From an uncultured bacterium (GTDB taxonomy: Bacteria; Pseudomonadota; Gammaproteobacteria; Ga0077536), in assembly GCA_964012875.1 (NCBI GenBank), contig CAXGUU010000002.1, positions 1 through 32,486 of the forward strand: 32,486 nt of DNA, read 5' to 3'. Positions 1,024 to 21,461 of the stretch are shown here, one piece after another. The position numbers and the translations under genes are program-made. The notes under the pieces are model-generated. The model ran no database searches. It was not told the DNA's origin and saw only the letters and a program-made list of their open reading frames with translations. The number at the start of each line of letters is the position of its first letter. Positions within the stretch are counted from its first letter, which is position 1.

Positions 1024-1887
1024 CTAATCCTTGAAGCCGATTGCCCGTCTGGTTGCTTCGGGCAGGCCGGTGGGGTCAATCAAAAAGTCGTACACCTTCG
1101 ACCAGTGCGTATGCGCCAGCTGGTGCAGGTGAAAAGCATTCTGCATGGCCACTTTTCTGCCCTGCGCATCCTGCGCACCGTTGATGGCCTTTTTCGTCAT
1201 CTTCAGCGCGAAGCGCGACTTGGCGGCGATCTTTCTCGCCATCTCGAGCGTTGCGTCCTCGAGCGCGTCCCGCGCCACGACCTTGTTGACCATGCCGAGT
1301 TGCAGGGCTTCGGCCGCCGTAATTTCGTCAGAAGTAAACAACATTTCCTTGGCTTTACGTGCGCCCACTTCCCAAAAATGATGGAAGTACTCAACGCCAC
1401 CGACGCCGAAGGATACGGTCGGATCAACGAAAATCGCATCGTCTGTCGCAATGATCAGATCGCAGGGCCAGGCCAGCATGAGCCCCCCGGCAATGCACTT
1501 GCCCTGCACCGCGGCAATCGTCGGTTTCGGAATATTGCGCCAACGTTCACTGAACCCTATGTAGATTTCTTCTTCGCGACTCATCTGCGCCTCCGCACCC
1601 TGGCAGGTGAAACCGCACATGGTGCCGACTGTTTCAAAGTCGCTCATGCGCTGATAGGGCTCTTTTTCGGCGAGATCGTGACCCGATGAGAAATGTTTAC
1701 CATTGGCGGCAAGCACAATGACACGGACGTCCTCGTCGTGCGCACCACGATCAAACGCGTCGTTTAACTCGTAGAGAAACTGGGTATCCTGCGCATTCGC
1801 CGTTTCCGGGCGATTGAGTGTGATGCGCGCGATACCGTCTTCGACGTTGTCGTACTCTATATAATGCGGTTCGGTCTTGGTGTCCAA
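1024..1887 (-). CDS. Enoyl-CoA hydratase/isomerase (crotonase) family protein
   Basis: 287-aa ORF. Crotonase-type segments are ARITLNRPETANA, VIVLAANGKHFSSGHDL and AAVQGKCIAGGLMLAWPCDLIIA. It ends 19 nt upstream of the DAACS start, so the two are probably co-transcribed. Confidence 0.9.
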   Translation of the reverse strand: MDTKTEPHYIEYDNVEDGIARITLNRPETANAQDTQFLYELNDAFDRGAHDEDVRVIVLAANGKHFSSGHDLAEKEPYQRMSDFETVGTMCGFTCQGAEAQMSREEEIYIGFSERWRNIPKPTIAAVQGKCIAGGLMLAWPCDLIIATDDAIFVDPTVSFGVGGVEYFHHFWEVGARKAKEMLFTSDEITAAEALQLGMVNKVVARDALEDATLEMARKIAAKSRFALKMTKKAINGAQDAQGRKVAMQNAFHLHQLAHTHWSKVYDFLIDPTGLPEATRRAIGFKD

Positions 1888-7199: not shown

Positions 7200-7472
7200 A
7201 TGAGTTCGTCCCAGTGCTGGTTTGTGTACATCGTGCAGTGCGCCGACGACACGCTGTACACCGGGGTCACGACGGCGCTGGAGCGGCGCGTGGCGCAGCA
7301 CAACGCCGGCACCGGAGCTCGTTATACGCGCCAGCGGCGACCCGTCAGCCTGCTGTATTACGAACGTGCTGCCAATCGCAGCCTGGCGCAAACACGGGAA
7401 GCGGCGATCAAACGCCTTTCGGCGAGTCACAAACGCGCCCTCGCCACACGAGACCAAACGACGTTTTCGTAA
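7200..7472 (+). CDS. GIY-YIG nuclease superfamily protein (small YhbQ/UPF0213-like)
   Basis: [31 protein letters not shown]...YYE matches the GIY-YIG core. The start is taken at the internal ATG 7200, giving 90 aa, the typical size; the track ORF begins at 7128. Confidence 0.75.
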
Positions 7473-7511
7473 GCAGCCTGAAAACCGCGGTCTGACCCCT
7501 GCCCCTCTGCA

Positions 7512-7982
7512 TTAATCAGGCAACGCAATCATTGCGAACATTGCCGGTTCATCGCTGACCACGTGCGAATCGTGGCCACGGCCGCGGGTATCCTCAAGCA
7601 ACAGAATGTCACCTCTTTTAAACATGCGTTTCTCGCCGGACTCCACTTCGACGGTGATCGCACCCGCCAGCATAATCACGTATTGACGCCGCGGAGTCGG
7701 GTGCCAATCAGTAACCCAGCTTCGATCGGCGGTGGTCAATAGGAAGGTTTTGGCCTCAGTCACCGGGGATACGCCGATAGGCCCCGAGGGAGGCGCGAAT
7801 GCCTTGACCTCGAATGCCATTGTGTCATCTGCAAAATAGGACCGATCGTCGTCGTCCATAGCAATCCGGGTGATCGCCACCGAATCGCGTGGCGCTTTCG
7901 CCTTGACTACTTCGTCGGCAATGACTGCGAGTGGCAAGTTGATCAAAACAGTTACGCTGACAAACAGGCAAAGTCGTTTCAT
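7512..7982 (-). CDS. Secreted cupin-domain protein
   Basis: Signal-like N-terminus MKRLCLFVSVTVLINLPLAVIA. The C-terminal beta-barrel-like segment WHPTPRRQYVIMLAGAITVEVESGEKRMFKRGDILLLEDTRGRGH is cupin-like. GGAG lies 8 nt upstream of ATG 7982. Confidence 0.6.
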   Translation of the reverse strand: MKRLCLFVSVTVLINLPLAVIADEVVKAKAPRDSVAITRIAMDDDDRSYFADDTMAFEVKAFAPPSGPIGVSPVTEAKTFLLTTADRSWVTDWHPTPRRQYVIMLAGAITVEVESGEKRMFKRGDILLLEDTRGRGHDSHVVSDEPAMFAMIALPD

Positions 7983-8084
7983 TTGTGTCTCCAGTGGATC
8001 AGGCATACGCATTCGATATGCTCTAAATCATAACGAAATTGATACGAATCGCATTTTTCCAGGCCCAATTTTCGCCGCACACAC

Positions 8085-9299
8085 CTAGTGGTGCTTTGCC
8101 GCCAAATCGGCATGATGTGGAAATGCGACCTGTGCGAAGAGCGACATCAGCATGAACAGGAACAGCATTAGGGCAAGGTAACGTGCATCGCCAAGATCGA
8201 GCAGTCCGACGAGGTAGCCGGAAAATCCGCCGAAGAATTGCTGCATAACCCCCGCGACCGCCGCTGCCGCACCGGCCAGGGCCGGCACCACGCTGACCGT
8301 GCCGGCAAGCGTCGACGGCATGAGCAAACCGTGACCGAAGCCGAGGCCGAACAGCGGCAAGGTCACCGCAAGGGCAGAGTGGATGCCGTTTATTGCGAGC
8401 AGCCACGCGAGTCCGATACCCAACAAGGTCACGATCTGCCCGGCATACATCAGCCGCTTTTCGGGTACCCGCCGAATGAGCCGAGTCGTCATGAAATTTC
8501 CAGCAATGTAGGACAGCGGCACAATGGCGATGTACCAGCCAACCTCCGCCGGTCCAACACCGTAATTAGCGAGTACGACGGGAAAACCCGCTAGAAAAAC
8601 GTAGAACGAACCGGTGCACATCGACAGGATCATGCAGAGTCCCAAAAATTCCGGGACCCTGATTACTTGGCCATAGGCGCTCAGCATGTCCTTGAGCCAA
8701 TGTGGCCGGTCATGATGCTCGTCGGCCGCACGTGGCAGCAACACCGCATTGGAGACCGCCAGCACAAGGGCCAGTGCCGCGGCAACGGCGAACGTGGCCC
8801 GCCAGCCGAACAGTACGTGCAACCGGCCACCGAGTATGGTCGCGAAGGGCGGGCATAGGCCCATCACCATGCCAACATAGGCCATGACCCACGGCTTGTC
8901 AGGCCCGGCGAAGAAATCCTGCACCATGGCGCGCCCCACCACGATACCCGCAGAGACGCCCGCACCCTGCACTAGGCGCGCGCCGATCAGCATGGTCAGG
9001 CTCTGACTCACCATCGCGAGAAGCGAGCCTACGACCGCGACTGACAATCCGAACACGATCACACGCCGGCGTCCATAGATGTCGGACAAAGGGCCGTAAA
9101 ACAGCTGGGCGCCTCCGAATCCGATGACGAAGGCGCTGAAACTCAGCTGCACCTGCGCCTGGCTCGCCCCGAAAACCCCACTCCATTCTGCCATTGACGG
9201 CAGGCACACCGTCATCGCAAACAATCCGAGCGCGATCGAGCCCAGCAAATTTGCGATCAACAGACGGCTGGCGGCCTGCGGTGGCGAGGTAGACGACAT
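8085..9299 (-). CDS. MFS transporter, Bcr/CflA-like drug/metabolite efflux family
   Basis: About 12 hydrophobic helices and MFS motif A GPLSDIYGRRRVI. The start at ATG 9299 (MSSTSPPQAASRLL...) puts TM1 at the usual distance. The longer track ORF (to 9446) would read through the intergenic inverted repeat. Confidence 0.85.
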   Translation of the reverse strand: MSSTSPPQAASRLLIANLLGSIALGLFAMTVCLPSMAEWSGVFGASQAQVQLSFSAFVIGFGGAQLFYGPLSDIYGRRRVIVFGLSVAVVGSLLAMVSQSLTMLIGARLVQGAGVSAGIVVGRAMVQDFFAGPDKPWVMAYVGMVMGLCPPFATILGGRLHVLFGWRATFAVAAALALVLAVSNAVLLPRAADEHHDRPHWLKDMLSAYGQVIRVPEFLGLCMILSMCTGSFYVFLAGFPVVLANYGVGPAEVGWYIAIVPLSYIAGNFMTTRLIRRVPEKRLMYAGQIVTLLGIGLAWLLAINGIHSALAVTLPLFGLGFGHGLLMPSTLAGTVSVVPALAGAAAAVAGVMQQFFGGFSGYLVGLLDLGDARYLALMLFLFMLMSLFAQVAFPHHADLAAKHH

Positions 9300-9302
9300 G
9301 TC

Positions 9303-9387
9303 GGGGACAGTATATTTAATTTGGAAGCTCCGATTGGCGCCTTTTCGGGCGCAAGGATAATCGAGCTGAATTAAATATACTGTCCCC
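9303..9387. repeat. Perfect 19-bp inverted repeat (GGGGACAGTATATTTAATT / AATTAAATATACTGTCCCC) with a 47-nt spacer, in a divergent promoter region
   Basis: The arms at 9303-9321 and 9369-9387 are exact reverse complements. The spacer contains a small GC hairpin (GCGCC-ttttcg-GGCGC). Each arm, read toward its flanking gene, contains a TATACT -10-like hexamer. A third GTCCCCAAC copy lies at about 9400-9408. Confidence 0.9.
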
Positions 9388-9412
9388 CAACTTATTCCGT
9401 CCCCAACAATGG

Positions 9413-9916
9413 ATGACCAGCGACATGAACGAACTGCAATCCGCAATCCTCGATATCACCCATGTCTACAGCATTTATGCCCGCGCTATCGACGAAAAAC
9501 GATTTGATTTGCTGTCGCAGGTATTCAGCGCTGACGCCGAGCTGCACTACATCGTGGGTCCGCACGAATTTCGCTCAAACGGCGCGGAGTCCGGTAATGC
9601 CTTCGGCGAATTTTTGAAACTGTGTTACTGGACGAATCACTTGATCGGCGCGCCGGCAGTGGAGCTTGACGGCGACAGAGCCTGGGCGACGGCCCGCGTG
9701 CAGGCCACCCACCTGCAGGAACGCGACAATGGCGCTATGTCGCGCTGGTTCCTGCGCGGCTCCTATCACGACCAGTTTGAACGCCGCGACGGCAACTGGA
9801 TCATCGTCAACCGCTACTGCCACACGCCGGACGACGAAGGCGAATTCCTCGCCGAAGGGGTCAAGAGGTTTGCTGCGATTGGCTGGACCGAAGCAGCGAA
9901 GGTCCGGGCGGCCTGA
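9413..9916 (+). CDS. SnoaL-like / NTF2-fold protein
   Basis: 167-aa ORF. The N-terminal LQSAILDITHVYSIYARAIDEKRFDLLSQVFSADAEL pattern and the later W/Y-rich cone segments are typical of SnoaL_4/NTF2-like proteins. Confidence 0.7.
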   Translation: MTSDMNELQSAILDITHVYSIYARAIDEKRFDLLSQVFSADAELHYIVGPHEFRSNGAESGNAFGEFLKLCYWTNHLIGAPAVELDGDRAWATARVQATHLQERDNGAMSRWFLRGSYHDQFERRDGNWIIVNRYCHTPDDEGEFLAEGVKRFAAIGWTEAAKVRAA

Positions 9917-9927
9917 TCACCAGTCCC

Positions 9928-10737
9928 ATGGCCCTCGACCCAGCACTCGAGCCATTCCGGGAATATCCTATCGAACCCGGTTTCGCCTACCCGGAGCAGA
10001 TCATTTCGATCGACGTTGCAGAGCAACGTCGTTTGCACGGGTATTGCGATATCGAACCAGGGCTGTTCGAGAATACCGCCGACCCGTCGCTGGTCAGTCG
10101 ACTGCCAATCGTGATGCTGTCGAATACGATTGTTGTGCAACGGCCGCGGTGGGGTCAGGTCCACACGGTACAACGCATTGACCAACGCCGACCTGTTGCA
10201 ACCGGCGAAGCTCTGAATCTGCATGGGACGATCGACCACTGCGTCCCCCATCCCCGCGGCGAGATCATGAAAAGTACCTGGCGCTATATCGATGCCGGCG
10301 GCGAAACGGTGCTTGTTGTCCGTCCCGACGTCTTGATGATCGATCCTGACGGCGGTAGCGAAACCGCGAAAAGACCGGGCGTCGCAGAAGCGGGTGCCGA
10401 ATCGTCACTGCTGTGGTCTAAAACCTGTACGCCGGAGAAAACGGTCTGCTACTGCGAAGGCACGTTCAACCCGATTCATGACGATCCCAAGGTCGCGAAC
10501 AGCTTCGGCTTTCGCGCCCCCATCATTGCCGGCACCCAAACCATGAGCTTTCTGTTAGAGCCGATTTATCGTCGAGCGGCTGTCGATGTGCTCGACGTCG
10601 CCATCCAGTTCAGGCGACCTGTATTCTGGGATGATGTGCTTGGAATCGAGGCGGTCGAAAATACACAAGGCTATTCCCACATTCGTGCCAGCAATGCCGA
10701 CGGCAAGGTTGTTGCTGACTGTACCATCGAACCCTGA
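9928..10737 (+). CDS. MaoC-like (R)-hydratase family protein, double-hotdog size
   Basis: 269-aa ORF. The C-terminal half carries the MaoC hydratase motif FNPIHDDPKVANSFGFRAPIIAGTQTMSF. Confidence 0.7.
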   Translation: MALDPALEPFREYPIEPGFAYPEQIISIDVAEQRRLHGYCDIEPGLFENTADPSLVSRLPIVMLSNTIVVQRPRWGQVHTVQRIDQRRPVATGEALNLHGTIDHCVPHPRGEIMKSTWRYIDAGGETVLVVRPDVLMIDPDGGSETAKRPGVAEAGAESSLLWSKTCTPEKTVCYCEGTFNPIHDDPKVANSFGFRAPIIAGTQTMSFLLEPIYRRAAVDVLDVAIQFRRPVFWDDVLGIEAVENTQGYSHIRASNADGKVVADCTIEP

Positions 10738-10756
10738 CTGACGCCGCATTTAAAGC

Positions 10757-10980
10757 GTGCGGCCGGAACCCGAGGATATTTGCTTCTTGCCCGCGGTCGA
10801 GCTGGCCCGCTGTCTGCGCGCGCGTGAACTGTCGGTCGTTGAAATCACGCGCGCCTTCTGTGAGCGCATCGAGACCTCTAACGCCCGCGTCAACGCGTAT
10901 GTGACAACATGCCTGGACACGGCACTGGAGGCGGCAAAATCCAGCGACCAGCGGATTGCCGTGGGCGCATCGTCGTCCGT
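10757..10980 (+). pseudogene. N-terminal remnant (about 75 codons) of an amidase-signature (GatA-like) amidase
   Basis: ICFLPAVELARCLRARELSVVEITRAFCERIETSNARVNAYVTTCLDTALEAAKSSDQRIAVG matches the canonical amidase N-terminus. The following GPLHGVP / GGSS catalytic core is missing. Similarity ends at the stop codon of the convergent kinase gene (10982). Confidence 0.65.
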
Positions 10981-10981
10981 T

Positions 10982-11995
10982 TTAAGCCGCGCCGAAGCGA
11001 GTCACGTAGTCCCTCGCCAGCGGCACACTGGCGGCAGTGAATTCGACTCCTAGTTCCTGCGCTAGGTCAGTGTCGGAATGCGATCCGATCCAGGCGATGA
11101 TCAACAGCCGCCGCAGCATGAGGAAAGTGGGTATTTCGGCGACCTCTGCCTCACTTAACGGGGCTACCGTTCGGTAACCGCCGACCCAGGCCTCGATCAA
11201 CGCATCCAGCTGCTCGTGCGTCTCCATGAAACTAAGCGCCGTCGCAATGTCGTAGAGAAACCAGCCAAGACCGGCATCATCAAAATCAATTACCCGTGTG
11301 TCATCGCCGGTTTCTAGCAAATTGGCCAAACGCAAATCCGCGTGGATCAGGCCGAACCGATCAGGCCCGTTACCAAATCGCGCCAGGCGCCCGCGCACGG
11401 TCTCATCAGCCTGCTGCAACAGCGCCACGATGTCGTCGTCGAGACCCATGCCGTCCTGCCAGCGTCCCCAGTTGGGCGTGTCGCCCAGACTGTGTTCGTA
11501 GTCCCACACCAGCCGCTCGAAATATGCGGGACGCTGCCAGCTGCGGGCGTGAAGATGCATGCGGGCAGCGACTGCGCCGAGGCGTTTGAACGGTTCGATG
11601 AGTGCCGATTCGTCCGGCTCGTCCCCGGCAATAAACTCGAACATCACCACCATCCGTGACTCGTTCAACTCGGGCGTCTCAACAAGCTTTATCAACTCCC
11701 CATCGAACGCCGGTACCGCTTGCGGTGTTTCAACGCCCGCGTCGGATTTGAGCGCTTTCATCCAAGCCAGCTCCGTGCGGACACCATCAATGGTGTGGTA
11801 GTCGGTCCGGTGTACGCGCAGAATCAGCGGTGGCTCGTCATCGCCGACATCGACCCGGTAGGTCGCATTCTCGGAAATATTAAGCAGGGTCAGCGGCGCG
11901 GACGATAACCCCCACAACGGCAAGGCACGCTCGGCGACACTGTCAAGGTGCGCCAGGCGTTGTTTGTCATCTAGCGATTCGAAGGTCGCAGTCAT
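10982..11995 (-). CDS. APH-fold phosphotransferase (aminoglycoside phosphotransferase / hydroxylysine kinase / amino-alcohol kinase family)
   Basis: Catalytic loop LIHADLRLANLL (HxDxxxxN) and IDFDDAG (DFD metal-binding motif). The start at ATG 11995 (MTATFESL...) has AAGGA about 7 nt upstream. Confidence 0.85.
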   Translation of the reverse strand: MTATFESLDDKQRLAHLDSVAERALPLWGLSSAPLTLLNISENATYRVDVGDDEPPLILRVHRTDYHTIDGVRTELAWMKALKSDAGVETPQAVPAFDGELIKLVETPELNESRMVVMFEFIAGDEPDESALIEPFKRLGAVAARMHLHARSWQRPAYFERLVWDYEHSLGDTPNWGRWQDGMGLDDDIVALLQQADETVRGRLARFGNGPDRFGLIHADLRLANLLETGDDTRVIDFDDAGLGWFLYDIATALSFMETHEQLDALIEAWVGGYRTVAPLSEAEVAEIPTFLMLRRLLIIAWIGSHSDTDLAQELGVEFTAASVPLARDYVTRFGAA

Positions 11996-12130
11996 GAAAA
12001 ATCCTTTCCCGATCCCGACTCCGAATAGTAATCCGAATAACGCGGCCACGCCTGCTGAACCATCAGGCGTCTACGTCGGTTCGGCAGTATTCGATATGCT
12101 GACGATACGATTGTTCTGGAGTGAGACCAT

Positions 12131-12898
12131 ATGTTGACACCGATCCGAGGGCGTAAAGTGATCGTGACGGGCGCGAGCAAAGGCATCGGCAAGGGCATCG
12201 CGCGCGTCTTCGCACGGCACGGTGCTAGAGTGGTCTTGGTCTCCCGCAACCAGGCTGATGTTGCGGCAGCCTGCGCCGACATTGAAGGTGACTGCGTACC
12301 CGTCAGCGCTGACATTTCGACCTGGGCAGGCGCACAGACGCTGGCCGCGCGAGCGGCCGAGGCAATGGGCGGGATCGATATCGTGTGCGCCAACGCCGGC
12401 ATCTTTCCGCAAACGAAAATTGAGGAGATGGAACCTGACGAATGGGATGCCGTGCTCACGACCAACGTCAAGGGAAGTTTCATGATGGTCAAAGCCTGCC
12501 TGCCGTGGCTGAAGGACTCCGAACAAGGCCGCGTCATCCTCACCTCATCGATTACCGGCCCCATCACAGGCTATCCGGGATGGAGCCATTACGGTGCGAG
12601 CAAAGCGGCACAGATTGGTTTCATGCGCACTGCCTGCATCGAACTCGCACGCGACCAAATCACCATCAACGCCATTCTGCCGGGCAATATCGTGACCGAA
12701 GGTCTCGACGGACTTGGAGACGGCTACCTGAACACCATGGCTGCGAGCATTCCACTGAACGCACTGGGTGATGTCGAGGATATCGGTAACACGGCACTGT
12801 TTCTTGCCAGCAAGGAGGCGGGCTACATTACCGGCCAAAGCATTGTTGTCGACGGCGGGCAGACCCAGCCGGAAACGCTCGAAGCACTGGACGCGTAA
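12131..12898 (+). CDS. Short-chain dehydrogenase/reductase (classical SDR)
   Basis: VIVTGASKGIGKGIA (TGxxxGxG), CANAGIF (NAG) and YGASKAA (YxxxK). GGAG lies upstream of the ATG. Confidence 0.9.
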   Translation: MLTPIRGRKVIVTGASKGIGKGIARVFARHGARVVLVSRNQADVAAACADIEGDCVPVSADISTWAGAQTLAARAAEAMGGIDIVCANAGIFPQTKIEEMEPDEWDAVLTTNVKGSFMMVKACLPWLKDSEQGRVILTSSITGPITGYPGWSHYGASKAAQIGFMRTACIELARDQITINAILPGNIVTEGLDGLGDGYLNTMAASIPLNALGDVEDIGNTALFLASKEAGYITGQSIVVDGGQTQPETLEALDA

Positions 12899-12902
12899 CG
12901 AT

Positions 12903-14186
12903 ATGGCACATACCGACCTGCTTGACCGCCGCTATCGAATACTCGGTGAGGGTGCGCCTTTATTCTACGATGAGCCACTGCATATCGTGCGCGGCGAGGG
13001 CGTCTGGCTCTATGACAACGAAGGCCGGCGCTACCTCGATTGTTACAACAACGTGCCGCATGTCGGTCACTGCCGCCCCGAGGTTGTCGCCGCACTCAGC
13101 AAGCAGGCCGCAACGCTCAATGTCCACAATCGCTATCTGCACGAAACGGTACTCGAATACGGAGAGCGACTGCTGTCAATGCTTGACCCGAGCATAGACA
13201 GGATCATGTTTATGTGCACGGGCTCGGAAGCCAATGATCAGGCCTTACGCATTGCCCGTCTGTGCAGCGGCGGTGAAGGTATCGTCTGCACCAACCTCAC
13301 CTATCACGGCAACACTACGGCCGTTGATCAAATCTCGCCCTTGTTTTACGGCAAGGTTTCGCCCTTCCCCAACGTGCGCGCAATACCCTTTCCGGACAGC
13401 TATCGAGCGCCCGGAAACCTGAGCGGAGAAGCCCTCACCGCGCATTATTTGAGCGAACTCGACGCCGCAATCGATGATCTCAAACGTAGTGGCCAGGGTT
13501 TCGCCGGTCTCATCGTGTGTTCGATCTTCGCCAATGAAGGTCTGCCCGATGTCCCGTCCGGCTTCCTGCAGCAGGCCCGCGAGCGCGTTCACCAGGCTGG
13601 AGGGTATCTGATCGCCGACGAAGTCCAGGCTGGCTTTGGCCGTACGGGGAGCATGTGGGGCCACGAAATCGCCGCTGTCGTGCCTGATATCGTCACCATG
13701 GGTAAACCGATGGGCAACGGTTACCCGCTGGCCGCACTGGCGGCTCGATCTGAGCTCATCGACGCCTTTCGATCGAAGGTCATGTACTTCAACACCTTCG
13801 CCAGCGCCCCAGTCGCGAGCGCCGTGGGCCAGGCGGTGCTCGACGTGATGGAAACCGATGACCTCATTCGCCATGCCGGGCGAATGGGACACTACATGAA
13901 AGCGGGTTTTGAACGCCTCGCCGAATCTCACGAAATCATCGGCGACATCCGCGGACATGGCTTGTGGGTTGGGGTCGAGCTGGTCAGCGACCGCGAGGAA
14001 AAAACACCTGCGACCGAGGCAACGAAAGTGGTCGTCAACAAGATGAAATCGCGCGGTATTTTGATGAATCGCATCGGCGAATTCGACAACGTGCTCAAGA
14101 TGCGACCACCGCTGCCATTTGCCGATGCAGAAGCCGATTACCTGCTCCATGAAATCGACCAGGTGTTTGGCGAGATCGTTACCTGA
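12903..14186 (+). CDS. Class-III aminotransferase-fold PLP enzyme, AGXT2L/phospho-lyase-like subgroup
   Basis: GSEANDQALRIAR, ADEVQAGFGRTG and the PLP-lysine segment DIVTMGKPMGNGYPLAA, which I recall as close to the ethanolamine-phosphate / 5-phosphohydroxylysine phospho-lyase signature DIVTMGKPMGNG. ATG 12903 lies 4 nt after the SDR stop. Confidence 0.88.
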   Translation: MAHTDLLDRRYRILGEGAPLFYDEPLHIVRGEGVWLYDNEGRRYLDCYNNVPHVGHCRPEVVAALSKQAATLNVHNRYLHETVLEYGERLLSMLDPSIDRIMFMCTGSEANDQALRIARLCSGGEGIVCTNLTYHGNTTAVDQISPLFYGKVSPFPNVRAIPFPDSYRAPGNLSGEALTAHYLSELDAAIDDLKRSGQGFAGLIVCSIFANEGLPDVPSGFLQQARERVHQAGGYLIADEVQAGFGRTGSMWGHEIAAVVPDIVTMGKPMGNGYPLAALAARSELIDAFRSKVMYFNTFASAPVASAVGQAVLDVMETDDLIRHAGRMGHYMKAGFERLAESHEIIGDIRGHGLWVGVELVSDREEKTPATEATKVVVNKMKSRGILMNRIGEFDNVLKMRPPLPFADAEADYLLHEIDQVFGEIVT

Positions 14187-14218
14187 GACAAGCTAAGAGG
14201 GATATAAGGAAGCGCACC

Positions 14219-15127
14219 ATGACGACTTACACCGTAATTCAGCTCACCGAAGGCATGAACGTCAGTCAGCTCAATGATTTTGCCGGGCGCATCGAAGCCC
14301 TGGGCTATGACGGCCTGTGGGTGCCCGAACTGGATGGCCGGGAACCGGTCGCTTTATCGGGCCATCTCCTAGCCAACACCACAACGCTCAATATCGGCAT
14401 CGGCATTGCGAATGTGTACGTGCGCGATTTTGTCGCCGCCGCACAGGTGCGCCAGACCTTGGCGGAGCTGTCGGGCGGCCGCTTCTGGCTTGGACTCGGG
14501 GTGTCGCACCCGTTGTTGGTCGAGCCGCGCGGTCACACTTTTCTCCCGCCGACCCAGGCGCTCGGTAACTACCTGCGCGGTATTCACGCGACCGAACCTT
14601 CAGGACCGAAACCGGCATCACCGGGGCCGATTGTGTGCGCCGCCCATGGCCCGAACCTGCTGGCGATTTCCCGTGACCTTGCAGACGGTGCTTTCTGTCT
14701 TAACCAGCCGCCGCAGCACACGGCCCGGGCGCGCGAAATCCTTGGCGCCGACAAACGGCTCTGCATCGTTGTGCGTACCGTCCTTGAACCCAATGTCGAG
14801 GCGGCCCGGCAAATGGCCCGTCAGGCGCTCGATTTCTACATCAAACTGCCGGCCTATCACCGGACCTGGAAAGCTGCAGGCTATGACGAATCGGATTTCG
14901 ACAACGGCGGGAGCGACCGCCTGATCGACGCCATTTTTGCACTGGGCGATGAAAAAGCGATCGAGCGCCGTATTCAGTCGCATATCGATGCCGGCGCGTC
15001 TGAAATCTGCTTTTACCCTGTCAACCCGGCAGAAAACATGCAGGCCGACCAGGTTGGCGGCCTTGAACCGGCATGGACCATCCTCGAAGCCTTCGCCCCC
15101 GGACGCAGAGGCCCAGTAACACGGTGA
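14219..15127 (+). CDS. Luciferase-like monooxygenase (LLM) class flavin/F420-dependent oxidoreductase
   Basis: 302-aa ORF. TIM-barrel LLM pattern: GYDGLWVPE, LNIGIGIANVY, GRFWLGLGVSH. AAGGAAG Shine-Dalgarno lies 7 nt upstream. Confidence 0.8.
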   Translation: MTTYTVIQLTEGMNVSQLNDFAGRIEALGYDGLWVPELDGREPVALSGHLLANTTTLNIGIGIANVYVRDFVAAAQVRQTLAELSGGRFWLGLGVSHPLLVEPRGHTFLPPTQALGNYLRGIHATEPSGPKPASPGPIVCAAHGPNLLAISRDLADGAFCLNQPPQHTARAREILGADKRLCIVVRTVLEPNVEAARQMARQALDFYIKLPAYHRTWKAAGYDESDFDNGGSDRLIDAIFALGDEKAIERRIQSHIDAGASEICFYPVNPAENMQADQVGGLEPAWTILEAFAPGRRGPVTR

Positions 15128-16236
15128 ACAGCAAACTTTGTGACATGTTCGGTATCGAAGTGCCGATCTTTGCCTTCTCACACTGCCGCGACGTGGTTGC
15201 TGAAGTCTCGAAAGCCGGCGGTTTTGGCGTCCTCGGCATGGCCCGCATGCACCCCGACCGGGTAGAGCGGGAACTGAACTGGATCGACGAACAGGTCGAT
15301 GGCAAACCCTATGGCATCGATGTACTGATGCCGTCCAGTTTCGAAGACAGCAGCGCCCGCAAGTTCGATCCCGATGAACTCTTCCCGCCGGAGCACGTCG
15401 CCTTCGTGCGCGACATGCTGGACAAAGCCGGTATACCACCGCTACCACCGGAGGAAGAGGATGCGATCAAGAATGAAATCGTGGCCGGCATCAATTTCAC
15501 ACCGGCCGAAAGCCTGGCGATGGCGGAAGCCGCCATGCGCCACCCGATCAAAGCCATCGTCAATGCGCTCGGTACACCGCCACCACAATTGCTCGAACGC
15601 GCGCAGGCCACGGGCATCAAGGTGGGCGCGCTCGCGGGGAAACCGCGCCACGCGGTCAAACACAAGAACGCCGGTTGCGATTTTGTCGTTGCGGTGGGTA
15701 CTGAAGCGGGCGGCCATACCGGTGAAATTTCGTCACTTGTTCTCTGGCCGAGCGTCGTTGATGCCGTTGCACCGCTACCGGTACTGGGTGCTGGCGGTGT
15801 CAGCGGCGGGCGCCACCTCGCCGCAGCCTTTGCTCTTGGCTGCGACGGTGTGTGGTGCGGATCGCTCTGGTTGAAGACGATCGAAAGCGAAGTGATTCCC
15901 GAAATAAAGGCAAAAATGTTCGTCGCTGAAGCAACAGACGCCGTGCTCACCAAAACGGTGACCGGGAAACCGTGCCGGACACTGCGCAATGCGTTCTCTG
16001 AAGCGTGGGACATGCCGGGCGCGCCACCGACCTTGCCGGCGCCAACCCAGAACTATTTATGGTGGCGCGAAGGCCGCACACGTGTCGAGCGCGTCCGCGC
16101 TCAGGATTTTCTGACCTACCCGGTCGGCCAGGCAGTGGGGACAATAAGCGAGGAAACCTCAGTGCGGGAGGTGTTTTACGACCTTATGACAGAGCTGCTG
16201 GACGCGCGCGAGCGGCTTAACCGTATTGTCGACTAG
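15124..16236 (+). CDS. Nitronate monooxygenase (2-nitropropane dioxygenase / FabK-like) family FMN oxidoreductase
   Basis: MFGIEVPIFAFSH, AGGFGVLG and VAVGTEAGGHTG motifs. GTG 15124 overlaps the upstream TGA (GTGA), which suggests translational coupling. ATG 15145 is the alternative start. Confidence 0.85.
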   Translation: MNSKLCDMFGIEVPIFAFSHCRDVVAEVSKAGGFGVLGMARMHPDRVERELNWIDEQVDGKPYGIDVLMPSSFEDSSARKFDPDELFPPEHVAFVRDMLDKAGIPPLPPEEEDAIKNEIVAGINFTPAESLAMAEAAMRHPIKAIVNALGTPPPQLLERAQATGIKVGALAGKPRHAVKHKNAGCDFVVAVGTEAGGHTGEISSLVLWPSVVDAVAPLPVLGAGGVSGGRHLAAAFALGCDGVWCGSLWLKTIESEVIPEIKAKMFVAEATDAVLTKTVTGKPCRTLRNAFSEAWDMPGAPPTLPAPTQNYLWWREGRTRVERVRAQDFLTYPVGQAVGTISEETSVREVFYDLMTELLDARERLNRIVD

Positions 16237-16240
16237 GCTG

Positions 16241-16270
16241 CAAAAGAAAAAGGGCGGCAGAGCCGCCCTT
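16241..16270 (-). terminator. Rho-independent terminator between convergent genes
   Basis: GGGCGGC-aga-GCCGCCC stem (16252-16258 / 16262-16268). On the minus strand it is followed by TTTTTCTTTTG, 20 nt past the CMD-family stop. On the plus strand the U-tract is poor. Confidence 0.65.
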
Positions 16271-16289
16271 GATCATTGGGCCTAAGTGG

Positions 16290-16865
16290 TCAGCCGGCAC
16301 TCTTGGCGCCGTCCTCGAAATTCACTTCACACGGCGCGCCGACACTGTCGAGCCCGGTGGCGTAAACAAGCCGGCCGTAGCCCGTGAAGATCGCCATGCG
16401 CCATCCGAGCGCCATGATTTCACGCTGACTGTAGTGTTGTTTCAGTTCTTCAAACAACGCGTCGCTGACCGACTTGTGATCACCAGCTATGACGCTGGCG
16501 AACCTGAGTGCCGCTTTCTCCGCGTCATTAAACAAATCGCTGTTTTCGAATTCAGGCAACGCCTTGATCATTGCGTCTGTGAGACCCTGATCCTTCGCCG
16601 AAGCATACACGGCCGTCATTCACAGATTGCATTGATTGATTTGCGCGATTTTGTGACGAATGAGTTCAGTGAGTTTCACACTCAGGCCGTCACTGTCCGC
16701 CATAATGTGATCGTAGTAGAACTTAACAAAGTTGCGATACAGATCCGGCGTTTGCGCAAATACCTGGATCCATTCTGAACCGCCGAGCGCGGCGTCGGAT
16801 TCATGCATGGTTTTCTGCAGATCCGGATGCACCGCCTCGTACGGCACCTTATCGATGCGTAGCAT
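16290..16865 (-). CDS. AhpD-like / carboxymuconolactone decarboxylase (CMD, COG2128-type) family protein interrupted by in-frame TGA (16620-16622) at the second Cys of CxxC; candidate selenoprotein, or else a pseudogene
   Basis: Track ORFs 16620-16865 and 16290-16619 are in the same frame and adjacent: ...IRHKIAQINQCNL-TGA-MTAVYASAKDQGLTDAMIKALPEFENSDLFNDAEKAALRFA. This aligns with the family pattern SQxNxCxYCxxxHxxxxxxxGxT...W..S..F...E.AAL. A strong GGAGG Shine-Dalgarno precedes ATG 16865 only; none precedes the internal ATG. Confidence 0.6.
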
Positions 16866-16954
16866 GTGTTACCTCCCAGGGACCAGTCCCGTCCCTGATT
16901 TATATACCGCAGCAGGACGACTTTAAACCCCGGGAGCGAATGCCTCTCGGTCGC

Positions 16955-17004: not shown

Positions 17005-17853
17005 TCAGTTAACGAATTTCGCGTAGCTGTCCAGAATGGGCAGCACGGTTTCGGGGCTTTCGGGCGGCAAGGGCAGGATAGCGCGCTTGAAGCCCATGTC
17101 TGCCAGCGGGTTGATGTGATCAGCTTCCGGGGCCATGGCGAAGAACATCGACAGCTCGACGCTTTCAGGGTCGCGACCAATCTCCTTACAGGCCTCGGTG
17201 ATCTGGATCATGCCACCTTCAAAGTCGTATAGGCCCCCCAAGGGCATCCAGCCGTCACAAAATTCGGCCACATGCTTGGCCGTCTTGGGTCCGGCGGCGC
17301 CGCCCATCAAAATCTTCGGATGCGGTTTCTGGGTGGGCTTCGGCCACGCCCAGGATTCCTCGAACGTGGTTTTGTCGCTCGAATAGCTGGCCTCGTCCTT
17401 GGTCCACAGTTCTTTCATCAACTTGATATTGTCCGCGAGGATACCGCGACGCTTTTTGTAATCGAGACCATGGTTACGCATTTCCTCAACACACCAGCCG
17501 TAACCGATCCCGAATTCGAACCGGCCGCCTGAGATCATGTCGAGACTCGCAACCTCTTTCGCCAGCCAAATCGGATCGCGTTGCGCAACCAGGGTGATGC
17601 CCGTACCGAGTCGCAGATTAGTAGTCACCGCCGCCGCGGCCGTGAGCGCGACGAACTGGTCATGGGTACGCCAGTACTCTTCAGGTAGCGGTCCCAGGTT
17701 CGGGTTACCGCCCCAGGGTGTTTCCCGGCTGGTCGGAATATGGCTGTGCTCCGGAAACCACAGCGATTCGAAACCACGCTCCTCGCAGGCCCGCGCCAAC
17801 TCCATCGGCTGAATCGCCTTGTCGGTCGGGAACATAATGACACCAATATCCAT
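17005..17853 (-). CDS. LLM class oxidoreductase, Rv2161c-like (annotated family: probable F420-dependent)
   Basis: MDIGVIMFPTD...GFESLWFPEHSHIPTSRETPWGG...LRLGTGITLVAQRDPIWLAKEVASLDMISGGRFEFGIGYGW...DGWMPLG matches the pattern I recall for the mycobacterial Rv2161c-type LLM subfamily. GGAG lies upstream of the ATG. Confidence 0.85.
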   Translation of the reverse strand: MDIGVIMFPTDKAIQPMELARACEERGFESLWFPEHSHIPTSRETPWGGNPNLGPLPEEYWRTHDQFVALTAAAAVTTNLRLGTGITLVAQRDPIWLAKEVASLDMISGGRFEFGIGYGWCVEEMRNHGLDYKKRRGILADNIKLMKELWTKDEASYSSDKTTFEESWAWPKPTQKPHPKILMGGAAGPKTAKHVAEFCDGWMPLGGLYDFEGGMIQITEACKEIGRDPESVELSMFFAMAPEADHINPLADMGFKRAILPLPPESPETVLPILDSYAKFVN

Positions 17854-18014
17854 TTAACTACTCCTTCAAATCGAAATGTTTGCGCGAAGGTCGCGCGGGT
17901 AACCCGGCACAGGTCCGTCGTCGCTCCTAACGCCTGCCCAGGTTGGGTTGGAAGCTGCTGAACAAATCGTGCTGATGCCTTGTGGAAAGCAGACGCGCGA
18001 TTTACTCAGCAGTT

Positions 18015-18431
18015 TCATGAATTGTCTTTCCACCATTGCTGGTAGGCTTCATCCGGCGCAATCAATCTCGATTTCGCCGCACCTATCTGTTCCTTATTAT
18101 GGTCGAACACGGCGATTTCGAATTCGAGCATTTCGCCGCGTTTACGCGTGACCTCGAGCCTCACGCTGATTTCTTCGCCCGGCAGTACGGGCTTGCGAAA
18201 GCGCTCCGGGGTAAACGTGAGCCCGAGGCTGCCGTCACCTGGAAACTCGGAACCGAACATACCGGTAATCGAGATCTGGATAAGGCCGCCGGGTACGATG
18301 ATGTCGGACGCATCCGGGAAACGCAGGCGCGCGGCCTCGACGTTGTGATGAATCGCGTTGTAGTCCCCGCACAGCTCACAATAGTCGGCGACCTGCTGGT
18401 GCGTGAACACGAAACTCGCTTCATGCGTCAT
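18015..18431 (-). CDS. MaoC-like single-hotdog (R)-specific enoyl-CoA hydratase family protein
   Basis: FTHQQVADYCELCGDYNAIHHNVEAARLRFPDASDIIVPGGL is the MaoC/PhaJ hydratase motif. The start at 18431 gives 138 aa, the typical size; 18476 is the alternative. Confidence 0.75.
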   Translation of the reverse strand: MTHEASFVFTHQQVADYCELCGDYNAIHHNVEAARLRFPDASDIIVPGGLIQISITGMFGSEFPGDGSLGLTFTPERFRKPVLPGEEISVRLEVTRKRGEMLEFEIAVFDHNKEQIGAAKSRLIAPDEAYQQWWKDNS

Positions 18432-18590
18432 ACCGACGTCGAGCGACGCCGCGGTCAAACAATGCGTACGAGCCATATGGCCGGTCCCTGGTGTTATTCT
18501 GAGCCGATAGCGGCACCCCTCTGCCGCCGCGGCGCGCGTGATTCTATCGCGAAACGCCGATAAATCACGTTGGCGACCAGAGGGGCGATA

Positions 18591-20579: not shown

Positions 20580-21461
20580 TCATCGTTTCAGACGCTGGGT
20601 CAGCTCCGCGACGCAATCCAGATCGTGTGCCGCACCATGCCCGTGACGTCCCCCGATAAAGTAATGGAGCTGTGAGTAGCCACGCTCAATGACCCGCCTG
20701 GCACCATCATAGTCGTCCGGCGCGTCGACCAGGGCCACGGTAAGTTCATCAAAATCCCGTCCCGCGTCTGCGCAAGCCACCTTGAGATCACTTACGGCAT
20801 CACCGTCATAGCTACCGTTGACGGTGATCCAGCCGTCGGCGTAACGCGCCACTCGCTTCGGCACCGACTTCGAATTCGACCCGATCCATACCGGCGGGCC
20901 CAGCGCACGATGGCAGGCAATACCCGGGCGGGAGCCGTCGAGGGCGACGAAATCACCGGCATAGGCAGGCAACTCGGCAGCCCAGATCTGTTTCATGGCT
21001 TCCACACGCTCGCGCACCACCTGCCATCGTTTAGCGAAAGGGCTGCCGAAGTCTTCCATCGACTCGCGGATGAACCCGCCGGCAACACCCAGCACAAGCC
21101 GACCGCCGGACAGATGATCGAGCGCAGCGGCCGCGTTTGCCGTCAACCAGGGATCGCGTTGTGTCATCAGGCACACGCCCGTGCCCAACGATATCTTTGC
21201 CGTCACGGCCGCACAGGCACCCAGACTCGCAAACGGGTCATGGAAGTGCGCGAGTCGTTCAATACCGTCGAACTGGCGAATCGTCCCCGGCCGCTCGAGC
21301 GGCACGTGGCTGTTTTCCGGCACGAAAAAGGCATCTATGTCGCGGGCTTCGGCCGCAGCCGCAAACTCATGTGGCAGTCCAGCCTCGTTATGGGCGAGCA
21401 AGCACACGCCAATAGCTATACCCGTCACCTGTTTAAGGACCAGTCCATGCGAGGAATTCAC
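20580..21461 (-). CDS. LLM class flavin/F420-dependent oxidoreductase
   Basis: 293-aa ORF with an LLM pattern: FFVPENSHVP, ISLGTGVCLMTQRDPWLTANAAAALDHLSGGRLVLGVAGG, DGWITV. GTG 21428 is a possible alternative start. Confidence 0.8.
   Translation of the reverse strand: MNSSHGLVLKQVTGIAIGVCLLAHNEAGLPHEFAAAAEARDIDAFFVPENSHVPLERPGTIRQFDGIERLAHFHDPFASLGACAAVTAKISLGTGVCLMTQRDPWLTANAAAALDHLSGGRLVLGVAGGFIRESMEDFGSPFAKRWQVVRERVEAMKQIWAAELPAYAGDFVALDGSRPGIACHRALGPPVWIGSNSKSVPKRVARYADGWITVNGSYDGDAVSDLKVACADAGRDFDELTVALVDAPDDYDGARRVIERGYSQLHYFIGGRHGHGAAHDLDCVAELTQRLKR

Follow-up and report, generated by a model that had tools for sequence, protein, structure and literature searches.

The closest described systems to the locus reported here are RMM1/AAUM of Mycobacterium smegmatis and the RMM of Rhodococcus jostii RHA1, which is encoded on plasmid pRHL2. 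These microcompartment loci combine a short-chain dehydrogenase/reductase (SDR), an APH-fold kinase and a pyridoxal phosphate (PLP)-dependent enzyme of the class-III fold. Their inferred chemistry proceeds from ketone reduction through phosphorylation to a PLP-dependent elimination that yields propionaldehyde. We found the same three enzyme families, with the same inferred chemistry, in an uncultured gammaproteobacterium (Ga0077536), on a 32,486-nucleotide stretch of DNA that we call the window. The window is an entire contig (CAXGUU010000002.1) of a 3.2-Mb metagenome-assembled genome (MAG; 384 contigs, completeness 88%). The nearest homologues of its genes come from named Gammaproteobacteria, and the stretch is represented in seawater metagenomes. 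Positions 10982-14186 probably form a self-contained, shell-less cassette for a small amino alcohol or amino ketone, most likely aminoacetone and (S)-1-amino-2-propanol, with the two oxidoreductase genes that follow lying outside the route.

Among the window proteins, the kinase and SDR have their specific closest relatives in the RMM/AAUM enzymes, whereas the lyase is only 43% identical to that of RHA1. The RHA1 locus includes shell genes, an aldehyde dehydrogenase, the lyase, the kinase, a GntR regulator and a permease. Compared with these systems, the window has no shell genes, no aldehyde dehydrogenase at the locus, no GntR regulator and no permease, its layout is divergent and its host is a gammaproteobacterium. 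As a separate observation, one set of four shell and hypothetical proteins is listed in two places of the RHA1 locus (L104, pRHL2 400544-407474), next to the lyase and again next to the aldehyde dehydrogenase. The two copies have identical accessions, which points to a recent tandem duplication of the shell block.

The class-III-fold phospho-lyases include Arthrobacter A1RDF1 (PDB 5G4I/5G4J) and the human enzymes ETNPPL (6TOR) and PHYKPL. A1RDF1 and ETNPPL align with the window PLP enzyme over their full length and have an identical lysine motif, (V/I)VTMGKPMGNG. Enzymes of this group act on phosphoethanolamine or phosphohydroxylysine, whereas the probable substrate of the window enzyme is aminopropanol phosphate and its gene is embedded with an SDR. 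Veiga-da-Cunha and colleagues reportedly described, in 2012, vertebrate and bacterial phospho-lyases that are partnered with a kinase. Plasmid At of Agrobacterium fabrum C58 carries the same three genes without a shell, namely ATU_RS25115 (phosphotransferase), ATU_RS25110 (aminotransferase-family protein) and ATU_RS25105 ("FabG"). The C58 kinase falls in the same aminopropanol kinase (APK)-type clade as the window kinase. However, on the C58 plasmid the kinase is followed by the lyase with the SDR convergent, PotD/PotF-type ABC transporters flank the genes, and identity to the window proteins is 43-46%. To our knowledge, the C58 trio is uncharacterised.

A lyase-then-kinase pair is widespread in Pseudomonas, Halomonas, rhizobia and Rhodobacterales, sometimes with an SDR in front (Woeseiaceae, Steroidobacterales). 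The lyase of this pair is the nearest lineage to the window lyase in our tree (47-58% identical among the matches listed), while its kinase belongs to a separate clade (28-37% identical among the matches listed) and its genes are co-directional. The same reaction sequence in a Gram-negative without a microcompartment was reportedly worked out by Turner and co-workers in the 1970s for Pseudomonas sp. NCIB 8858, from aminoacetone via 1-aminopropan-2-ol and its O-phosphate to propionaldehyde. That route is known as biochemistry, and the likeness to the window is one of reactions rather than of compared sequences. A Burkholderia regulator that responds to aminoacetone belongs to a different locus (PMC4349456).

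The genes in question and the features around them are as follows (positions in the window, strand, description and evidence):

10982..11995, minus strand: APH-fold amino-alcohol kinase, most likely (S)-1-amino-2-propanol kinase (PF01636, match to 6EF6, motifs, tree)
11996..12130, no strand: divergent intergenic region of 135 nt, putative promoter region (between two divergent start codons)
12131..12898, plus strand: SDR, most likely aminoacetone reductase / 1-amino-2-propanol dehydrogenase (adh_short, adh_short_C2, PDB matches)
12903..14186, plus strand: predicted class-III-fold PLP-dependent phospho-lyase, acting on an amino-alcohol O-phosphate and eliminating ammonia and phosphate (PF00202, PDB matches, tree)
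14219..15127, plus strand: luciferase-like oxidoreductase (LLM; F420-type, TIGR03620-like) (PF00296)
15124..16236, plus strand: NMO/FabK-like FMN oxidoreductase (PF03060)
16250..16270, no strand: GC-rich hairpin, likely operon end (between the convergent NMO gene and a minus-strand AhpD-like gene)

In this order, the five genes match the Pfam families APH, adh_short, Aminotran_3, Bac_luciferase and NMO. The TAA stop codon of the SDR gene is separated from the ATG of the PLP gene by four nucleotides (CGAT). The gap between the PLP and LLM genes is 32 nt long and contains Shine-Dalgarno-like motifs (AGAGGG/AAGGAAG), and the GTG start of the NMO gene overlaps the TGA stop of the LLM gene as GTGA. 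The open reading frame (ORF) map and the Pfam matches agree with the original prediction, a reading of the DNA letters alone, in the gene order, both gaps, the overlap and the kinase and PLP motifs.

The structures nearest to the SDR point to aminopropanol metabolism. It matches PDB entries 3PK0 (301 bits) and 6CI8/6CI9 (291 bits), and the next class, FabG structures, reaches 155 bits. The PDB titles of 6CI8/6CI9 are generic, and we take these entries to be the M. smegmatis aminopropanol dehydrogenase. Both the glycine motif TGxxxGxG (TGASKGIG) and the YxxxK motif (YGASK) are present. The enzyme is most likely an aminoacetone reductase / 1-amino-2-propanol dehydrogenase. It also exceeds the cut-off of NCBIfam model NF004202, "3-oxoacyl-ACP reductase FabG" (388 versus 333 bits), and the C58 homologue (ATU_RS25105) is annotated as fabG. 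This label is probably a systematic misnaming of an aminopropanol-dehydrogenase-like SDR subfamily.

The kinase matches PF01636 with 85.8 bits. Its best PDB match is 6EF6 (293 bits over residues 19-335), which under a generic title is presumably the M. smegmatis (S)-1-amino-2-propanol kinase; the next match, an amicoumacin kinase, scores 68 bits. The catalytic motifs are intact, with HxDxxxxN in GLIHADLRLAN and DFD in VIDFDD. A midpoint-rooted phylogenetic tree placed the window kinase and five relatives as sister to the kinases of the RHA1 RMM, C58 and locus L006 (SH-aLRT 95%). The whole APK-type group had 99% support and was separate from the clade of the widespread pair-type kinases. The window protein is thus most likely to act as an (S)-1-amino-2-propanol kinase, as judged from its relatives. 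Its ATG start at position 11995 agrees with the homologues, and a longer GTG frame reaching 12049 is probably not used. Separately, genome G031 from another family encodes an APK-type kinase at 44% identity (C15:33107-34084) and has no lyase match at E <= 1e-60.

The PLP enzyme scores highest against phospho-lyases, namely the Arthrobacter phospholyase 5G4I (394 bits) and human ETNPPL 6TOR (335 bits). The next PDB classes are dialkylglycine decarboxylase (213 bits) and transaminases (at most 176 bits). The enzyme carries PDIVTMGKPMGNG, which aligns with the same lysine motif in A1RDF1 and ETNPPL. Within TMGKPMGNG, residues T265, G267, K268, P269, G271 and G273 are invariant in 16 relatives. 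The closest NCBIfam models to the lyase are PRK06148 and PRK06149, which describe fused kinase-aminotransferases; it matches their C-terminal halves. Homologues in metagenomes reach 83% identity. In our phylogenetic analysis, the lyase clade was set apart from the five class-III paralogues of the MAG (at most 31% identical) with 100% SH-aLRT; this tree was built without named ETNPPL, PHYKPL or A1RDF1 sequences, and the relation to these follows from the PDB score ranking. The original prediction had called the enzyme a phospho-lyase rather than a transaminase, and both the structural matches and the split from the MAG's own class-III transaminases favour that call. We predict that the enzyme is a class-III-fold phospho-lyase that eliminates ammonia and phosphate from an amino-alcohol O-phosphate.

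The Pfam and NCBIfam names say only class-III or aspartate-family aminotransferase, and transamination of aminoacetone to methylglyoxal has been speculated for RMM loci (Axen et al. 2014, PMC4207490). If the window enzyme were such a true transaminase, the kinase would have to act on something else. We find this hardly credible: the scores of 394 and 335 bits to phospho-lyases compare with at most 213 bits for every other class, the split from the MAG's transaminase paralogues is fully supported, and adjacency to an APH kinase is near-universal.

The family assignments and the genetic linkage are observations, while the substrates, stereochemistry and products of the route proposed here are taken from the nearest characterised enzymes. 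The SDR would reduce aminoacetone to 1-amino-2-propanol with NAD(P)H, and the divergently transcribed APH-fold kinase would phosphorylate the hydroxyl group with ATP. The class-III-fold PLP enzyme would then eliminate phosphate and ammonia to give propionaldehyde, which an unlinked aldehyde dehydrogenase elsewhere in the genome may oxidise. This corresponds to a shell-less form of the aminoacetone / 1-amino-2-propanol route, the route to which the SDR, APH-fold kinase and phospho-lyase had been likened from the outset, and both the PDB matches and the co-conservation described below are in line with it. Annotation pipelines name the three genes "FabG", "phosphotransferase" and "aspartate aminotransferase family protein", so the pathway is hidden from routine annotation.

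Domain searches agreed with the lack of a microcompartment. The larger ORFs of the window contained no bacterial microcompartment (BMC) shell domain (PF00936 and BMC-P shell) and no aldehyde dehydrogenase domain (PF00171), and PF00936 had no match in the whole 3.2-Mb, 88%-complete MAG. Shell proteins and an aldehyde dehydrogenase are thus absent from the locus, as had been noted from the sequence. At least three full-length aldehyde dehydrogenases are encoded elsewhere in the MAG, on contigs C18, C27, C75 and others.

We determined how the trio is distributed by comparing 24 same-family genomes, six family loci and 80 loci from other taxa, as well as all 80 other species genomes of the family. 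The 80 wider lyase loci are the matches listed, whose lyases are at most 58% identical to that of the window. Of the 24 other same-family genomes, seven carry both lyase and kinase, and the remaining 17 carry neither gene. This co-conservation of the kinase with the operon lyase is what the original prediction had expected of related genomes. Across the family, the lyase is present in 22 of the 80 other species genomes. All six family loci and 72 of the 80 wider listed loci, or 78 of 86 in total, encode a kinase homologue no more than 5 kb from the lyase.

The divergent layout, with the kinase facing one way and the SDR and lyase the other, recurs at 63-73% identity in five carriers. In a sixth, lyase, kinase and SDR follow one another in the same direction, with an amino-acid permease alongside. 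The SDR is strictly conserved in the cassette among the family loci. Conversely, the flanking genes differ in all five syntenic carriers and include an amidase, a cupin, a peptidase and a glutathione S-transferase-like gene, among others. Since the same trio is found between unrelated flanks, it behaves as a patchily distributed three-gene cassette. It travels without a microcompartment and is found in 23 of the 81 species genomes of the family. This is a known pathway in a new carrier, and nothing changes in what is known of the pathway itself; a marine gammaproteobacterial lineage joins those that carry the kinase/phospho-lyase route for small amino alcohols.

The trees of the two core enzymes bear on the substrate. 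In the lyase tree, the window sequence is nested among the gammaproteobacterial pair-type enzymes, and those of RHA1 and C58 are basal. The best characterised relatives of the lyase (5G4I and 6TOR) act on O-phosphoethanolamine, and this makes ethanolamine a possible substrate. The cassette might then degrade ethanolamine or another primary amino alcohol via O-phosphoethanolamine to acetaldehyde, as A1RDF1 and ETNPPL do, and the grouping of the lyase with proteobacterial pair-type enzymes rather than with those of RHA1 and C58 would fit this. However, the aminopropanol kinase and dehydrogenase are specifically the closest matches of the window kinase and SDR, and ethanolamine catabolism has no role for a dehydrogenase, yet the SDR is strictly conserved in the cassette. 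An approximately unbiased (AU) test also does not reject a single clade of the lyases that adjoin APK-type kinases (p = 0.064). We therefore regard ethanolamine or another amino alcohol as an unlikely substrate, with the conserved SDR and the APK-type kinase arguing for aminopropanol.

The kinase and lyase trees disagree, the kinase being of the RMM/C58 type and the lyase of the Pseudomonas/Woeseiaceae pair type (L104, L105, L008-L087). This conflict suggests a recombined, mosaic cassette, with the kinase and SDR from the RMM lineage and the lyase from the pair-type lineage. We do not claim such an origin, at which the trees hint, because the AU test does not reject one lyase clade.

The original prediction took the LLM and NMO genes for an extension of the amino-alcohol module that would suggest a different substrate or a changed fate of the carbonyl product. 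The LLM scores 210.9 bits against TIGR03620, just below the cut-off of 219.8, and FabK structures match the NMO protein at 122 bits. The prediction had proposed to compare gene neighbourhoods, and in our comparison the extension is not conserved. Neither an LLM nor an NMO homologue lay within 5 kb of the lyase in any of the six family loci and 80 listed loci from other taxa (0 of 86). Eight metagenome loci with LLM orthologues (64-74% identity) had no lyase upstream and no NMO gene downstream, and none of the 22 lyase-bearing family genomes had an NMO match within 100 kb on the lyase contig. NMO orthologues (65-80% identity) are present in 24 family genomes, never near the lyase. The closest orthologues of the LLM (G007, G013) and of the NMO protein (G091, G088; 79-80%) are all found in genomes without the lyase. 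The flavoenzyme extension, the sole unusual element of the locus, thus fails comparative testing.

Both genes have other typical surroundings. In genome G007, 1.7 kb separate the LLM orthologue from orthologues of the genes at window positions 17005-18476 (MaoC, 62%; LLM2, 79%), which are followed by an orthologue (82%) of the enoyl-CoA hydratase at window positions 1024-1887. The LLM therefore belongs to a resident neighbourhood, and the trio is the piece that was placed beside it. NMO orthologues adjoin genes for acyl-CoA dehydrogenase, enoyl-CoA hydratase, family-III CoA-transferase, SDR or Rieske proteins. In G091 (L106:7001-10679), an acyl-CoA dehydrogenase gene, a different LLM gene and the NMO orthologue follow each other in one direction. 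Contig C31 of the MAG itself (7429-12552, L095) carries genes for an enoyl-CoA hydratase, an NMO paralogue, an SDR, an acyl-CoA dehydrogenase and an LLM paralogue. This NMO paralogue is the only other NMO gene of the MAG and lies 2.4 kb from the LLM paralogue. Pairs of LLM and NMO paralogues within 10 kb were also seen in G004, G007 and G017. The recurring closeness of LLM and NMO genes in acyl-CoA-type clusters may reflect a functional partnership unrelated to amino alcohols.

Luciferase-like genes are also abundant. PF00296 has about 95 matches in the 3.2-Mb MAG, roughly 3% of its genes, and three of the matches are in the window (14219-15127, 17005-17853 and 20580-21461). An LLM gene as a neighbour is therefore not rare by chance. 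In G014 (L005:8259-9569), a 436-aa luciferase-like monooxygenase of another subfamily is encoded directly after the lyase but convergent to it, and this is probably a coincidence given the abundance of LLM genes. The most economical reading is that the LLM and NMO genes form a pair of their own, tied to acyl-CoA-type catabolism, rather than a conserved part of the amino-alcohol module. Their position beside the trio would be a genome-specific juxtaposition, and they are probably read through from the trio's promoter.

The arrangement is nonetheless real. Positions 12780-16877 lie unbroken on a 4099-nt contig, about 97.5% identical, of an independent seawater metagenome, and three further runs from three other studies yielded contigs that cross one or both of the lyase/LLM and LLM/NMO junctions. 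Because independent contigs span the junctions, the arrangement is not an assembly artefact of the MAG. It could thus be asked whether the five genes form one extended pathway, in which the LLM and NMO enzymes take the place of the aldehyde dehydrogenase of microcompartment loci and either deal with the aldehyde or fit the module to a different amino alcohol. The LLM would then act on the aldehyde, by oxidation or reduction, with the NMO/FabK-like enzyme providing or recycling reduced flavin. Such a pathway would fit the 32-nt gap, the GTGA overlap and the lack of a terminator, the recurrence of the junctions in the independent contigs and the absence of an aldehyde dehydrogenase from the window. 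Bacterial luciferase oxidises an aldehyde, so the chemistry is also in keeping with this proposal. The presence of cofD and cofE makes an F420-type cofactor plausible. These two genes adjoin at C18:914-2584 in the MAG, both above cut-off, while searches of the 88%-complete MAG for the FO-synthase genes cofG and cofH gave nothing; the F420 tail can apparently be built.

On the other side stand the absence of both genes from all lyase loci compared, from the surroundings of the lyase in the family genomes and, as partners, from the LLM-orthologue loci, the occurrence of their orthologues in trio-less genomes and acyl-CoA-type contexts, and the high frequency of LLM genes. We consider one extended pathway very unlikely. 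A very recent operon innovation in this single lineage, in which the LLM/NMO pair was acquired downstream of the lyase to process the aldehyde with flavin or F420, appears at best equally doubtful. If true, this pair would stand in for the NAD/CoA-dependent aldehyde dehydrogenase that all known amino-alcohol and microcompartment pathways use.

Several points weigh against a self-contained aminopropanol cassette with the LLM and NMO genes outside it. No terminator interrupts the closely packed SDR, lyase, LLM and NMO genes, and the last two are translationally coupled; co-expression, and hence some functional tie, is possible on these grounds. An LLM gene directly precedes the closest NMO orthologue in G091, and LLM-NMO pairs recur, which implies nothing for the trio. 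The lyase is nearer to the pair-type proteobacterial lyases (47-58% identity among the matches listed) than to the RHA1 and C58 lyases (43%). About half of the aligned residues, counted by eye, are common to the window and M. smegmatis kinases, and specificity can shift at such a distance. Finally, no linked transporter or regulator was found in the window.

We also looked at the signals that could delimit transcription of the shell-less cassette and its followers. No terminator-like site was found between the SDR, PLP, LLM and NMO genes. The hairpin at 16250-16270 has a 9-bp stem, seven pairs of which are G-C, and a minus-strand T-run. The 135-nt intergenic region between kinase and SDR (11996..12130) had no match to the sigma-70 consensus and showed weak sequence conservation relative to five syntenic relatives, and no conserved operator emerged from an alignment of the six divergent kinase/SDR intergenic regions. 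Tandem 8-mers in the window, pointed out in the original prediction, are not common to the relatives. An inverted repeat, AGCATnCCGG ... CCGGnATGCT, was present in the kinase/SDR intergenic regions of three relatives (L001:6119-6222, L002:9028-9123 and L004:7061-7171). This repeat is a possible operator in those three loci and is not evident in the window.

Next to the kinase, the window contains an amidase fragment. The amidase found beside the kinase in G004 was considered as its orthologue and is not one. Seawater contigs from four runs of four studies, from a strain about 97-98% identical, carry an insert of 1169 bases between positions 10966 and 10955 of the window, with 12 nt common at the junction. 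Two contigs bridge the 1169-base insert (window region 10757-10984, junction 10955-10966). The window's copy of the amidase reflects either a deletion between short repeats or a mis-assembly of the MAG. In the seawater contigs, the letters after 10966 carry on the amidase frame with R-P-R-G-P-M-E-G-L-P, which includes the GPxxGxP amidase motif. Since the insert continues this frame, the amidase that appears truncated in the window is intact in the population.

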